A stretch of DNA of 64,000 bases. It comes from a virus. This document shows positions 7,344 through 57,076 of this stretch, one piece after another (within the stretch, counting starts at the first letter, position 1; every line of letters starts with the position of its first letter). Made by a program: the position numbers and the translations under genes. Under the pieces are notes generated by a model, which searched no databases, was not told the origin of the DNA, and saw only the letters and a list, made by a program, of their open reading frames with translations. Location of the stretch: IMG/VR virus record IMGVR_UViG_3300025018_000105; one strand, written 5' to 3'.

Positions 7344-7639
7344 ACTACCTGATTGATCCTGAGAACGTCATTGACTTCGCCCGCACTGACGCCGAACTTG
7401 AACTGTGGTGGCTCTTCTCCTGTGTCGTCGCTGGGAAGACCGCACGCACGCAGGCCAAGTTGCTTGACGCGATGCTGAGCAAGCTCGAAGGCGAAACGCC
7501 GTTCGAAAAGTTCCGCAAGCTGAGCTACAACCGAGAACTGGAGGAAGCTTTCATCGCGCTGGATGACAAATCTGGTGAAGAGATCGCTGACTACGACCTC
7601 TCTGTCTGGAAACAATACGCGAAGAAGGAAGCTGCCTAA
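7340..7639 (+). pseudogene. probable internally deleted HhH-GPD/endonuclease III-like DNA glycosylase homologue
   Basis: N-terminus (IDP-N...RTDAELE.WWLFS.VVAGKTA..QA) and C-terminus (ELE..F.....G...A..DL.VW..Y) resemble a ~190-aa phage family; the central HhH core is missing. Confidence 0.45.
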
Positions 7640-7863
7640 TGGACATCAATATCCAACATCACCTGACTGTATTCGGAGTCAACGGTGGTGACTACGAATA
7701 TGGAATTAAGCTCGACGGGGACGGCATGGTAGAGCTTAGCTATAGCGAACCTGACCGTCCCGAAGTCACGAGCACCTTGACTATCGCGCCTGATGATCTC
7801 CCGACGTTCATCAAGGCGCTGACAGTCTTCGCTAAGTTTAACAATTTCACAGGAGAGGAATGA
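7639..7863 (+). CDS. hypothetical protein
   Basis: TAATG coupling. Confidence 0.6.
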   Translation: MDINIQHHLTVFGVNGGDYEYGIKLDGDGMVELSYSEPDRPEVTSTLTIAPDDLPTFIKALTVFAKFNNFTGEE

Positions 7864-7952
7864 TGGATTTTCACACTATCCTCATCGGAGCGGCGTTCGT
7901 TTTGATCGCCTCCTTCGTTGGCATTGTCATCCGCCACCGTAATACGCGTTAA
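7863..7952 (+). CDS. 29-aa single-TM peptide MDFHTILIGAAFVLIASFVGIVIRHRNTR
   Basis: TGATG coupling, GGAGAGG RBS upstream, TM helix with basic tail. Confidence 0.5.
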   Translation: MDFHTILIGAAFVLIASFVGIVIRHRNTR

Positions 7953-7994
7953 GCGCAATTTTTTCTTGACATTGTTGAGAAGATTGGTTAATAC
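7951..7994 (+). promoter_or_regulatory. promoter with upstream GCGCAATTTTT element
   Basis: aagcgcaattttttc-TTGACA-17 nt-TAATAC. Confidence 0.7.
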
Positions 7995-8033
7995 ATAGCC
8001 ATCACTCGGCAACGTCCGACAAGAAAGTCTCCC

Positions 8034-52500: not shown

Positions 52501-52671
52501 TTACTTACGAGGTTTACGAATCGCCTTACCACGGCGGTGACGACCCATCTCTTCGCTGATCACCTTGTCCAGCGCGTCAGTGTCTTCGCTTCCATCAAAC
52601 TCATCCAGATCGTCGGCCCAAAGACGGTCCCTGATGCGTCGATCCAAATGAAGGTCGTATTCGTCAGACAT
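52501..52671 (-). CDS. 56-aa acidic/basic peptide (not in ORF track)
   Basis: TAATG coupling to the portal stop; MSDEYDLHLDRRIRDRLWADD...RHRRGKAIRKPRK. Confidence 0.6.
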   Translation of the reverse strand: MSDEYDLHLDRRIRDRLWADDLDEFDGSEDTDALDKVISEEMGRHRRGKAIRKPRK

Positions 52672-54434
52672 TATTCGGCTGGTGGCTTGTCTCGGGTCTG
52701 CGCTTGGCGGGCGGCGGCCGGGACAGGTGGGATGTCGGTGTCATCTGGATTGTTGCCTTGCGCCTGCTTCTCTTGCGACTTACGGTTGGCGGCGGCCTGT
52801 CTTTCCTTGGCCTTGATGTCCATTTCGTCGCGCTTGGTCTCATTATCGTCCAGATCGCGCTGGAGTTCATCCTGCCGCTGAGCACGCGAATCCGGGAAGC
52901 CTTCCTGACGGCTCTCGAAGTCCGGTTGGTTCGGGAACTGTGCTTCATCTTCGAGCATCTTCATGAAAATTTCCTTGGTGACGTATTCCGGAATAACGTC
53001 GGCCTTAAGGAAGTATTCGTAGATGATCTCGATCGGTAGAAGGTTCGCCTGATACATCATAGTGATGGCGCGGAACTCACGGGCGGCTGCCTGATCCAGT
53101 AGGAAGTCTTGGTTTACGCGGAACTCAAGGGCTTCGCTGGGCTCTTCGTTCAGCCACATCGACAAGATTTCAGCGAGTTCCGTAAAGTTCTCGTTGAGAA
53201 CCGTGGTGACATTCAAAAGCAGTGATTGCTCGTTGCGGTCTTTAAGCTTCACTTGGTTGTCGGACTGCCCGGCTGTGTTGGAGTCTCCGATAAGGCGACC
53301 GCCAAGTGATGCGACTTGTGTCTCTTTGTGTTCAAGCGCCTTTTCAAGGCTCTTGAGGCCTTGGCCGTTGAACTCGATGATACCGGCTTTTTCGTTAGTG
53401 CCAATTTCCCATACAACGCTCGGGCCGATGTGATATTCGTCATCTTCCGAACCACCGGTGACGTAGTAGACCGGGTTTGCCGTGTAGAAGCGCCCATGCT
53501 CAAGCTGAGCATAGGTCTTGTAGTGCGACATATTAAGCGTGAGAATGTCGAGGATCGGCGGCTTCTCGACCGACGAGAGGCGCGTCGTAGCGTTGAAAAA
53601 GCGGAAGGGGATACGGTCCATCGGCACGCCATAAACCATCGGAGTCGCAACGATTGGCTCTTCGGTCAGGTCAGCGTCTTGTCCCGGATTCTCGTAAAGC
53701 TCCTGCTGATAGACCATACGATCGAAATTTTCGTCCCAAACGAGACGCAGGATGCGATACTTGATGTAGAGGTGGCCGTAATTCGGGTTCGGCTTGGACT
53801 CGTTACCTTCGAACGTCACGATCCGACGGTCGGGCTCGAACTCTCGCAGGAGGATGAAGTCGAACTCGTCTCGGCCATCGATCTCGGCCGTGGACCAGTC
53901 AAGGATATTCTCACAGGTGTAACCTGCCAAATAGGGCCGCACAAACGGTCCATCATTAGCCGATTTGTCAACCAGAACGCCATAGCGACCTACCGACAGC
54001 ATTTCCTGTGCGACGACCTTAGAGAAGACGTTAAAGCTCAGTCCGTCCTTACTGGTGCGACGACTGATCTGCTTGAGGCGAGGCCCGGCGTTGAGCAAAC
54101 GGGCGTCACGACGAAAGATCGAGCCAGTCAGGCCCGTCACCGTCCGATACACCATGTTGTAGAAAACAGCGCGGTCAAGGTAGGCCGAGTATTGCTCTTC
54201 GTCCATACCTTCGGGCTGGGGGAGATACATTTTGCCGTGGCGCTTAATTTCGACTTCGCCGATCATAGCGTGGCGGATCGCAGTCCAGATTTCTCGCCAG
54301 TTGTTGTAGTCCCAGTTTGAGAACTGCGGCGCACGCTCAATAAGCTCTTGACGCGAGCGAAGTGAGGCATAGTGGGCTTGGCGGTTATGAAACCGCTTCA
54401 CTTGGCCTTTAGTCGGGGGAGTATAATCTGGCAT
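52671..54434 (-). CDS. portal protein (DUF4055 family)
   Basis: YLP......Y..YL.RAVFYN...RT..GL.G.IF; LAH/EHG.FYTANP; GGRL. Confidence 0.88.
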   Translation of the reverse strand: MPDYTPPTKGQVKRFHNRQAHYASLRSRQELIERAPQFSNWDYNNWREIWTAIRHAMIGEVEIKRHGKMYLPQPEGMDEEQYSAYLDRAVFYNMVYRTVTGLTGSIFRRDARLLNAGPRLKQISRRTSKDGLSFNVFSKVVAQEMLSVGRYGVLVDKSANDGPFVRPYLAGYTCENILDWSTAEIDGRDEFDFILLREFEPDRRIVTFEGNESKPNPNYGHLYIKYRILRLVWDENFDRMVYQQELYENPGQDADLTEEPIVATPMVYGVPMDRIPFRFFNATTRLSSVEKPPILDILTLNMSHYKTYAQLEHGRFYTANPVYYVTGGSEDDEYHIGPSVVWEIGTNEKAGIIEFNGQGLKSLEKALEHKETQVASLGGRLIGDSNTAGQSDNQVKLKDRNEQSLLLNVTTVLNENFTELAEILSMWLNEEPSEALEFRVNQDFLLDQAAAREFRAITMMYQANLLPIEIIYEYFLKADVIPEYVTKEIFMKMLEDEAQFPNQPDFESRQEGFPDSRAQRQDELQRDLDDNETKRDEMDIKAKERQAAANRKSQEKQAQGNNPDDTDIPPVPAAARQAQTRDKPPAE

Positions 54435-54442
54435 GTAATCTC

Positions 54443-54802
54443 TGAAAAGGCGGCCCCCGGTCCTTATGATACCGGGGGCCTAGTCGGAGGAGACAGGCTG
54501 ATGAAGGGGGCCACCCTATCTGAAACAATCCCCGCGCTTCGATTGGCACATGCGTCCTACCACGCGTGGGACGGGCTCACCCTCTAGGCCCCGCTGGGAC
54601 CGGGCTCGCCGGGACACCATCGCGACAGCTTTTTCTGTCCAGATTGACCGGCAATAAGTTTACCTGTCCCCGCCGTGCTCACTTCCGCTCTCCCCACTTT
54701 GGCAGCCGACCAAAGCCGCTACTCGCCGGGCCGTTGGAGTGAGTGGTCCACGTCGTTTACAGGATAACCACTGATCGATGATGCAAAAGGAATTTCAAGT
54801 TG
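54443..54802 (-). ncRNA. candidate ~360-nt structured RNA / regulatory leader upstream of the portal gene
   Basis: Own promoter; no credible ORF; many local and long-range helices; ends in a 10-bp GC hairpin plus CUUUU. Confidence 0.6.
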
Positions 54803-54808
54803 ATGTTA

Positions 54809-54853
54809 AAGCTAACACAAGACGTTAACTATGTCAAGCAAAAATTGCGCTTA
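54809..54853 (-). promoter_or_regulatory. promoter of the portal leader RNA
   Basis: gtaagcgcaatttttgc-TTGACA-17 nt-TAGCTT. Confidence 0.75.
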
Positions 54854-55390
54854 CTGATCTGATGATTTGCGGGGCTTGATACGCAGAGCCCGTTCGAGCC
54901 TCTGCCAGAACTTGAGCTTTTCGAGTATCGGGTTGAGCCAATCGGTCAGGATGCAGAAGTTCCTGTTCTGCGGGGGCTTGTGGTGAACCGCGTGGCTGCG
55001 GCCAGATTGGATGACGCCGGTCTTCTGAAACACCTCGATCCAGCCGCCTTGGCGCTTGTGCGTCCACAGGTGAACTTCATTCATCATCATCCCACCAAAC
55101 GTGGCGAAGAACCACACGACACTCGGACCGAAGAGCCACAACCAGATAACGCTGATCACCCCGGCCGCGATGAATGTCGTCGAGTTACGCGCCCAGAACG
55201 GTGTTTTAGTGAAGTCCATAGGATCGGTGTGGTGTAGGTCGTTTGGCTCCAGCACCCACTTGTCGATCCACCGGTTTGTCGGCTTACCGATGCGCTCCTC
55301 CCACCAATGCAAAAGCCCGCCGATGAAGTCGGCGAGAAGCCAGCCGCACAGGGCTTGTCCAATGAACGCGAAAAATGCAAAGCTGATCAT
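54851..55390 (-). CDS. TMEM189/CarF/FAD4-family lipid desaturase (Lipid_desat-like)
   Basis: ADFIGGLLHW, LHH, VHLWTH, Q..G......HAVHH, NFCILTDWLNPILE; TM segments; ATGA overlap with the upstream stop. Confidence 0.8.
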   Translation of the reverse strand: MISFAFFAFIGQALCGWLLADFIGGLLHWWEERIGKPTNRWIDKWVLEPNDLHHTDPMDFTKTPFWARNSTTFIAAGVISVIWLWLFGPSVVWFFATFGGMMMNEVHLWTHKRQGGWIEVFQKTGVIQSGRSHAVHHKPPQNRNFCILTDWLNPILEKLKFWQRLERALRIKPRKSSDQ

Positions 55391-55923
55391 CGTGCCTCGC
55401 TCCACTTATCAGCAAAGGTCAGGATGAACTTGCGGTGCTTGTTGAACTGTTCACGAGCGAACGGCTCTTCTTCCCGCATCTGGCGTGTGATCTCTTCGAT
55501 CGGAACACCCTTGAACTGAGGATAGAAGCGCAGCGAGCCTGCTTCGTCCGCTAGCTTCTTCTCGAAATCGGCGTTATAGAGTTCGACCGCAGCAATGACT
55601 TCGCTCATCTTCCCGCGATATTCCACCTCTTGTTTGATGGAAGCCGGGAGCAAAGCGCTGCCAGCCGCAAAAGCAAGCAAAGCGAAAGTCCACGCGATGC
55701 CCGTGTTGACCGGATCACCAGCCGCAAGCAATGAACCAACGCCGCCAATCGTGAAGAAATACGCGAGGCGGAAACCTAGCATGTAACGCCACTCGACAAA
55801 CTCCTGTAACAACGTAGCCAGCGGGTGAACAATCCGCGTGCGCCGGATCACAAGCCAAAACGCATTATGTGATGCGTAGGAACCCTTAGGCTCCTTTAAG
55901 AATACAGGAGGTCTGATAATCAT
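55387..55923 (-). CDS. membrane protein with two TM segments, hypothetical
   Basis: Hydrophobic hairpin in the centre; coupled to the desaturase. Confidence 0.65.
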   Translation of the reverse strand: MIIRPPVFLKEPKGSYASHNAFWLVIRRTRIVHPLATLLQEFVEWRYMLGFRLAYFFTIGGVGSLLAAGDPVNTGIAWTFALLAFAAGSALLPASIKQEVEYRGKMSEVIAAVELYNADFEKKLADEAGSLRFYPQFKGVPIEEITRQMREEEPFAREQFNKHRKFILTFADKWSEAR

Positions 55924-56134
55924 AGTGGTGGTCTCTTGGGGGTTGACATGTTTTCAAGTTATGGTAATGAGGATTCGTCTGCGGCCTCGTAGACAATCCG
56001 AGAGACTGCCCGGCGCGCCCATTAGCCTGAATGCGCCGGGCACCTTTTGGAAAATCGTTGAGGACATTCATCCCCCGAATGACCCTTCGAGTCGTGAGCG
56101 CCGGTGGGGTCCATCCTAGTTCCCCACCGGCGAT

Positions 56135-57076
56135 TTACTCCCCAAACAGATCGAGCACTTCTTCAATGACCGGGTGACGGCAAACGTCATCACGTGTCAA
56201 CTTGACAAGTCCGATACGCTCGTAACGGAGGGCGGTTTCGTAGTCATACGAAGCATCACATGCCACCTCGGCATCGTCATTGTCGTTATTGTCGTCATCT
56301 TGGCCCGTGATGCCTTGCATACCTCCGGTGATGAAACCCGGCAGCGACGGCTGGCGATTGCGCTTGTCTTCAAGACGGTAGATGACATCCCCGAGGCCCA
56401 TCTTACCAATGTGACGGTCATACTGGTTGATGTCGCCCGTGATGATCATGTTACAGCCTTCCCCGATCCGGGTCATGAGCATCTTCATCTGTTCCGGCGT
56501 GGCGTTCTGCATTTCGTCTGCGATCACGACGCAGTTCTTGAAGGTGCGTCCCCGCATGTAAGCCAGCGGTGCGATCTCGATCGTCTCGTTGGTAAGCATC
56601 ATCTGAATCTGGTGCATCTCATAGCACTCGGCAAAGACATCAATGATCGGCCGGGTCCATGGAGCCATCTTCTCGGTTAGGGTGCCCGGCAGGTAGCCTA
56701 GGTCATCACCGGTGGTGACATTGGGACGAGTGATGACGATCTTCGTGATGTCGCCCTTCTGGAAATCGGCGATGGCCTGACGAACCGCCATGTAGGTCTT
56801 ACCAGTTCCGGCTGGTCCTGAAACGATCAGAATATCGTGATGGTGCTGGCGGAGCTTTTTGAGATAGACCTTCTGGTTTCGAGAGTTGGCTTGAAGTTGT
56901 GGAGGACGCTTTTTGGTCATTACCGACATCGGATGATCCCTGTGCGAAGAATAAGGAATGCCTTGATCCTTTGGATATTTGGAAGGGTAGAGAGTTTGCT
57001 TTTTGGCGGGTGTGGTGTTCGCCTTGCGATGGGCTCGCTTTTTGGTGGCACCAGTCCCGCGAGCTTTGCGGGCCAT
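56135..57076 (-). CDS. phoH: PhoH-family ATPase
   Basis: GPAGTGKTY, LGYLPG, IEIAPLAYMRGRTF, ADEMQN, TGD..Q.D, RHPVI. Confidence 0.93.
   Translation of the reverse strand: MARKARGTGATKKRAHRKANTTPAKKQTLYPSKYPKDQGIPYSSHRDHPMSVMTKKRPPQLQANSRNQKVYLKKLRQHHHDILIVSGPAGTGKTYMAVRQAIADFQKGDITKIVITRPNVTTGDDLGYLPGTLTEKMAPWTRPIIDVFAECYEMHQIQMMLTNETIEIAPLAYMRGRTFKNCVVIADEMQNATPEQMKMLMTRIGEGCNMIITGDINQYDRHIGKMGLGDVIYRLEDKRNRQPSLPGFITGGMQGITGQDDDNNDNDDAEVACDASYDYETALRYERIGLVKLTRDDVCRHPVIEEVLDLFGE

Follow-up and report, generated by a model that had tools for sequence, protein, structure and literature searches.

We asked what kind of enzyme a tailed phage gains from a gene that, when first read without any database search, looked like a lipid desaturase of the CarF type, and what such an enzyme could do to the host membrane. 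The gene lies in the window, which here means the whole stretch of 64,000 nucleotides of virus DNA that was analysed (IMG/VR record IMGVR_UViG_3300025018_000105). The sequence-only reading had placed it between phoH and the portal gene and had coupled it to a gene for a protein with two transmembrane helices (2-TM). Both the position and the overlap were confirmed, and two minus-strand ORFs were found within 54851-55923 as first read. The features of the locus are as follows.

56135..57076, minus strand: phoH, the upstream neighbour (PF02562, E 1.1e-65; phrog_170)
55387..55923, minus strand: 2-TM orphan gene downstream of phoH (P0002, 178 aa, two predicted transmembrane helices)
55387..55390, minus strand: ATGA start/stop overlap of the 2-TM and desaturase genes, preceded by GGAGCGAGG (55403-55395)
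54851..55390, minus strand: desaturase gene (P0001, 179 aa), ATG at 55390-55388 and TAA at 54853-54851; PF10520
55307..55309, minus strand: codon of His28 in the first His box, HWWEE, which also holds Glu32
55229..55234, minus strand: codons of His53-His54 in the second box, PNDLHH, with Asn50 three residues before HH
55058..55072, minus strand: codons of His107-His111, HLWTH box (from the motif and the alignment of relatives)
54980..54994, minus strand: codons of His133-His137, HAVHH box (from the motif and the alignment of relatives)
54932..54955, minus strand: codons of Cys146-Asn153, CILTDWLN, a signature of the Asn-type branch
52671..54434, minus strand: portal gene, the downstream neighbour (phrog_145, E 8.4e-102; DUF4055)

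Scaffold and capsid genes lie beyond the portal gene. The desaturase ORF as listed opens at GTG 55405, and ATG 55390 is an alternative start. The start is most likely ATG 55390, which gives a protein of 179 aa, because this codon forms the ATGA overlap with the upstream TGA, follows the Shine-Dalgarno-like sequence listed above and is the start annotated in Erythrobacter phage vB_EliS-L02. This phage is a 150-kb CbK-like siphophage (PMC9127768), its ATGA junction is identical, and its DNA is about 85% identical to the window across the phoH-portal block. It is described as lytic in PMC9127768 and listed as temperate in Table 1 of PMC12014285. The window DNA was found in aquifer metagenome runs, and no RNA run was listed among the datasets carrying it. 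In the minus-strand interval that separates the desaturase stop from the portal start (54435-54850), a TTGACA promoter-like box (54837-54832) is followed by approximately 330 nt of non-coding DNA. When the window is compared with phage L02, this stretch shows visibly higher conservation than the coding regions on either side. An Rfam scan of 54300-56300 gave one hit, which was sub-threshold.

The profile search that the sequence-only reading had proposed gave a clear match of the desaturase to Pfam PF10520 (Lipid_desat; E 4.3e-33, 115.2 bits against a gathering cut-off of 26.4), and this match covers profile positions 1-165 of 175. All His boxes described in that reading are present in the translation as H28-W, H53-H54, H107-L-W-T-H111 and H133-A-V-H136-H137, and so is its CILTDWLN motif (C146-N153). 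PF10520 enzymes need eight His in the pattern H / HH / HxxxH / HxxHH (PMC9131029, PMC8960569), and in an alignment of 22 relatives H28, H53, H54, H107, H111, H133, H136 and H137 were all invariant, as were C146, L148, T149, N153 and P154. The same eight His follow each other in PEDS1/TMEM189 and CarF, the plasmanylethanolamine delta-1' desaturases, which also share the family and an acidic residue at His+4. In the window protein Glu32 stands at His+4, where 253 of 258 aligned relatives, including phage L02, have Asp; P0073 is the only other distinct sequence with Glu in the 258 rows. The corresponding Asp of mouse PEDS1 (D100) is essential (PMC8960569), and a carboxylate is retained at this position in the window protein despite the change. 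Pairwise dN/dS values of 0.13-0.33 within the window lineage indicated purifying selection. Judged from these residues, the desaturase is a PF10520 member with intact catalytic residues, and PHROGs has no family for it or for the 2-TM protein.

The predicted fold agreed with this assignment. An AlphaFold2 model built on the alignment of the 22 relatives (pLDDT 91.6, pTM 0.84) was superposed on seven Swiss-Prot members of the PF10520 family with TM 0.73-0.76, among them human PEDS1 (0.76) and Myxococcus xanthus CarF (0.75), at 27-29% identity, and Arabidopsis FAD4-like 1 (0.76) and FAD4 (0.73), at 24-27% identity; the likeness to the FAD4 proteins is thus no greater than that to PEDS1. The next-best matches were di-iron fatty-acid 2-hydroxylases (TM 0.48-0.55), and the nearest structural neighbours outside PF10520 were sphingolipid and ceramide fatty-acyl 2-hydroxylases. 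A sequence search of the PDB found no relative, and Foldseek against the PDB gave nothing beyond weak hits to the Scs7p hydroxylase (E 0.57), with no solved structure of the PF10520 family. The window protein is about 90-100 residues shorter than PEDS1 and CarF, and its alignment spans residues 76-262 in human PEDS1 and 59-227 in CarF. Hydropathy and the model helices suggest three transmembrane helices, whereas CarF has four (PMC9131029). In the model, the desaturase would be a minimal catalytic core in which the first helix of CarF/PEDS1 is absent and all His are cytoplasmic.

Whether this core makes plasmalogens depends on two further positions. Plasmalogen makers require a ninth His ten residues past the HH box (CarF H113, mouse H131), and enzymes of this kind are found in animals, myxobacteria and Leptospira, while plant and alphaproteobacterial homologues without it fail to complement carF (PMC9131029). 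A Phe three residues before HH (mouse F118) is nearly essential, with 6% activity remaining on mutation (PMC8960569). When the window protein was aligned with cellular homologues from genomes, it had Thr63 at the ninth-His position and Asn50 at the Phe position. Among the 258 sequences, the ninth-His column held His in 45, and 36 of these 45 were of the Phe type; the Phe column held Asn in 191 and Phe in 49. The motif PF(R)EHH together with a His ten residues past HH was found in Leptospirales, Burkholderiales, Planctomycetota and one deltaproteobacterial MAG, and the presence of both residues in these homologues validates the two columns. In most of the phage-bearing clade the ninth His is missing, and the column is variable there. 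FastTree analysis of 240 distinct sequences, which included no animal and no plant sequences, put 190 tips in an Asn-type group and set this group apart from the Phe-type sequences (support 97). So the phylogeny that the sequence-only reading had called for placed the window protein away from the CarF-type sequences. Of its CarF-type desaturase, the PF10520 family and the His boxes stood, and the plasmalogen type did not, given Thr63, Asn50 and the separate branch. The two residues and the tree position together put the window protein in PF10520 but outside the plasmalogen-making subfamily, and plasmalogen synthesis by it appears unlikely. Because residues needed for plasmalogen synthesis are missing, some other host membrane lipid is probably altered.

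FAD4 and the FAD4-like proteins of plant chloroplasts, delta-3-trans desaturases acting on the sn-2 16:0 chain of phosphatidylglycerol, share the family, the His pattern and the lack of a ninth His with the window protein. At the ninth-His position plant homologues usually carry Arg (PMC9131029) and the window protein Thr; the window protein is also far shorter than the plant proteins and lacks a transit peptide. A bacterial parallel is the CarF homologue of Bradyrhizobium diazoefficiens, which belongs to PF10520, likewise lacks the ninth His and fails to complement carF (PMC9131029); this failure shows that PF10520 members without the ninth His have another activity.

The explanation that we hold to be probable, on balance, is that the gene encodes an active, minimal PF10520 di-iron desaturase of the Asn type that modifies a host membrane lipid near its polar end. 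That the chemistry is of the O2-dependent di-iron kind is suggested by the conservation of the metal ligands, by the fold and the purifying selection, and by what the family is known to catalyse. Only two activities are known in the family, one at carbon 1' of the sn-1 alkyl chain and one at carbon 3 of the sn-2 acyl chain (PMC9131029). The gene would be transcribed together with phage genes, and expression in lytic growth is the simplest expectation because most layouts place the gene inside a late or structural operon. The product would insert in the host inner membrane with the eight His predicted to face the cytoplasm, where these His and Glu32 would bind two iron atoms. With O2 and presumably an electron donor of the host, it would desaturate a hydrocarbon chain in a membrane lipid of the host, close to the chain's polar end, both the activity and the regiochemistry being predicted, so the infected or lysogenic cell would gain a lipid species that it normally does not make. 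The phage might benefit through membrane order or packing in virion production, through the envelope at lysis or through the adsorption of competing phages, all of which are only proposals. Some points count against this explanation: Glu32 stands in place of the essential Asp at His+4, no electron donor gene was found near the desaturase loci, and the alphaproteobacterial homologue from the literature has no assigned activity (PMC9131029).

To see how such a gene is distributed, relatives were collected from viral and cellular DNA. A word-based search gave 22 clusters of 158-182 aa, and an exhaustive profile search gave 2759 representatives at E ≤ 1e-3, of which 235 reached E ≤ 1e-30; many of the representatives have 160-200 aa. 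Among 50,697 deposited phage genomes, only vB_EliS-L02, whose homologue (UIS25202) has 72.6% identity and is annotated as hypothetical, and one 595-kb uncultured phage carried the desaturase. Pattern scans were then used to collect 41 IMG/VR loci and 45 genome loci, in which ORFs were called, neighbours were clustered and the clusters were named by PHROGs. The desaturase gene (DES) occurred in phages or prophages of at least five layouts that are unrelated to each other:

window lineage, siphophages: PhoH-X-DES-portal
Mu-like: late activator, endolysin, 3-4-TM protein, DES, small and large terminase, portal
P2-like: capsid, small terminase, adaptor, holin, endolysin, lipobox protein, DES, tail completion, baseplate
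myovirus type: capsid, adaptor, Neck1, DES, sheath, tube
160-kb phage: muramidase, two small ORFs, DES, NAD-dependent ligase

In three of these phage types (Mu-like, P2-like and 160-kb) DES ends the lysis cassette. Prophages of the Mu-like or P2-like type occur, for example, in Citromicrobium bathyomarinum JL1455 and Sphingomonas sp. UV9. Pfam analysis of the immediate neighbours in the other phage types found no electron donor and no lipid enzyme. In one Mu-like metagenomic phage (L007), a gene for a Peptidase_C93 protein (transglutaminase-like cysteine protease; 7384-8004) lies between the endolysin region and the desaturase and overlaps the desaturase start.

All 49 phage-context tips of the FastTree phylogeny fell in a single clade of 88 tips (support 75-90). 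Its 23 genome-derived members came from Sphingomonadales (19), Caulobacterales (2), an unclassified Pseudomonadota MAG whose record title says Alphaproteobacteria, and a Fibrobacterota MAG, and the neighbours were of phage type in 21 of the 23 and cellular in the other two (L055, L091). The bias to Sphingomonadales may be overstated, because the locus patterns were derived from the query family and favour query-like sequences. Members of the sister Asn-type clade are chromosomal genes from Cytophagales and Isosphaerales together with genes on phage-like contigs, in one case next to PhoH and in another with a GpA-type terminase and an integrase. We then looked for the gene in hosts, and only 3 of 401 sampled Sphingomonadales species genomes gave a strong match. 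A core copy is therefore missing from these hosts, and the gene moves between phages that infect hosts lacking it. This does not fit an auxiliary metabolic gene copied from the host, which should have a close homologue in the host's own gene set. Another 8 of the 401 genomes (about 2%) had a divergent chromosomal paralogue of 235-238 aa (E ~1e-10; for example L097:1318-2025 and L098:1019-1735) with motifs of its own, HMVMDY and FKNHHPRP, and with its first His box followed by a long insert. On present sequences, the short Asn-type branch is a distinct one, carried mainly by phages and prophages, here mostly of Sphingomonadales.

Sphingomonadales outer membranes contain glycosphingolipids. The substrate might be the sphingolipids or ceramides of Sphingomonadales and Caulobacterales envelopes, so that the enzyme would alter the outer membrane, for example to block superinfection or to aid release, and we regard this as unlikely although several results agree with it. 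Of the genome-derived clade members, 21 of 23 come from these two orders, the nearest structures outside PF10520 act on sphingolipids and ceramides, and three phage types have DES as the last gene of the lysis cassette; ceramides and glycosphingolipids also change how phages adsorb to Caulobacter (PMC6445935). But the host bias may only mirror gene exchange among phages of related hosts together with the search design, no sphingolipid gene lies near the desaturase, the sister branch has members in Cytophagales, Isosphaerales and phage contigs of unknown host, and PF10520 offers no biochemical precedent. In its stronger form, which we likewise regard as unlikely, the short Asn-type proteins would be a phage-specialised desaturase family for sphingolipid envelopes, acting for example on the sphingoid base or on the amide-linked chain near the head group. 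If this were true, phages would rewrite an outer-membrane lipid of LPS-less hosts, and so exclude competitors or ready the cell for release, as a lipid counterpart of O-antigen conversion.

Related His-box enzymes are able to switch between hydroxylation and desaturation. A di-iron enzyme of other chemistry, such as a hydroxylase acting on a lipid or carotenoid, was therefore considered, and the protein does match PF04116 (FA_hydroxylase) weakly, at E 1.6e-6 and with 29 bits, which is below the cut-off of 31. However, its PF10520 score is four times as high, and both characterised PF10520 activities are desaturations (PMC9131029), which leaves such a chemistry improbable. A reading as the carotene hydroxylase CrtZ was rejected for its poor superposition (TM 0.28).

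That the window protein is nevertheless a true CarF/PEDS1-type plasmanylethanolamine desaturase, which would give the host plasmalogens and perhaps singlet-oxygen handling in bacteriochlorophyll hosts, seems very improbable. PEDS1 and CarF share its Pfam family and fold and are top structural matches, but FAD4-type proteins fit the model equally well, and the Thr63, Asn50 and branch evidence given above stands against it. Nor is the synthesis of alkyl-ether precursors known from Sphingomonadales. Some hosts of related phages are indeed aerobic anoxygenic phototrophs (PMC9127768), but homologues without the ninth His do not complement carF (PMC9131029).

The sequence-only reading had also suggested that the 2-TM protein may be the partner of the desaturase, and this did not hold when the other loci were compared. 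Two stretches of the protein are hydrophobic (approximately residues 48-66 and 76-94). It matches no family in Pfam or PHROGs and has only four close homologues, and no look-alike in the ESM Atlas scored 0.9. Its gene follows phoH in the window, L02 (L001), L008 and L010-L013, and in those loci only. The ATGA overlap with the desaturase gene is limited to the window and L02, since the two genes are separated by a gap of about 170 bp in L010-L013 and by 1.3 kb with two ORFs between them in L008, and L005, L009 and L014 have the desaturase gene without it. In other phage types there is an overlap of 1 or 4 bases between the desaturase start and the stop of whichever gene precedes it, and genes for Neck1, the lipobox protein, the Peptidase_C93 protein and small orphans were all found in this place, although some large gaps in this spacing survey reflect imperfect ORF calls. 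Thus the 2-TM protein is confined to part of one lineage, and its overlap with the desaturase gene is explained by the tight packing of phage operons and is not evidence of partnership. Complex prediction for the two proteins gave a score of 0.00, which is below the mark and is evidence neither way. The 2-TM homologue of vB_EliS-L02 (180 aa, L001:1798-2340 of OL955261.1) is unannotated in the phage record, though it is conserved and has the ATGA overlap with the next gene. It is hardly credible that the desaturase is instead a non-catalytic membrane protein co-opted with its 2-TM neighbour for lysis timing or membrane disruption, as the overlap in the window and the endolysin, holin or spanin-like genes adjoining DES in the Mu-like, P2-like and 160-kb phages might suggest, because the eight metal-binding His are invariant and under purifying selection and would be needless for a structural role, DES lies far from lysis genes in the window lineage and the myovirus type, and the 2-TM ORF is dispensable in sister phages.

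With a desaturase active on a host membrane lipid as the preferred explanation, its place among known phage functions can be considered. Cyanophage vFAD enzymes are members of a different protein family, that of the classical acyl-lipid desaturases. Like the window protein they are phage-encoded membrane di-iron desaturases, and these delta-9 lipid desaturases are thought to remodel host membrane lipids in infection (PMC5776448). This precedent qualifies the earlier view that lipid remodelling is unusual for a tailed phage: phage lipid desaturases as such are already known. In the literature searched we found no paper that combines PF10520 with phages, and the description of vB_EliS-L02 lists 14 auxiliary genes, with the desaturase not among them (PMC9127768). 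The PF10520 enzymes of known activity form either the vinyl-ether bond of plasmalogens or the delta-3-trans bond in the phosphatidylglycerol of chloroplasts (PMC9131029); our results indicate a third, uncharacterised branch of minimal size with intact catalytic residues, mostly carried by several unrelated phage types. The vFAD enzymes copy a host activity (PMC5776448), whereas the window gene has no counterpart in most host genomes and no PHROG family, so if the enzyme is active, infected or lysogenic cells would gain an otherwise missing lipid, while the cyanophage desaturases instead boost what the host already does. The small size of the protein (about 170-180 aa) makes it tractable for work on structure and mechanism in a family without a solved structure, and the cultured phage vB_EliS-L02 with its host Erythrobacter litoralis DSM 8509 makes the question directly testable.

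Genes for PF04116 proteins were seen next to PF10520 genes in some cellular genomes. A 682-aa natural fusion of the order PF10520-PF04116-PF10520 (P0040, L099:5731-7779) adjoins a GDSL lipase gene, and in Burkholderiales (L077, L079, L083, L088) a PF04116 fatty-acid hydroxylase gene directly follows a Phe-type PF10520 gene. In Leadbetterella, an Asn-type gene of the sister clade also lies beside a PF04116 hydroxylase gene at a chromosomal locus. PF04116 was rejected as a gene linked to the window desaturase, because the fusion and the Burkholderiales genes are of the cellular Phe type, the Leadbetterella gene is chromosomal, and none was found in the window or the phage loci. The fusion and the Burkholderiales gene pairs suggest that cellular members of the Phe type, and not those of the phage clade, have a module that oxidises lipids in two steps. 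In Cytophagales (L080:4633-7204, and also L075 and L076), the Asn-type gene stands beside a divergently transcribed gene for a LytTR-domain protein.
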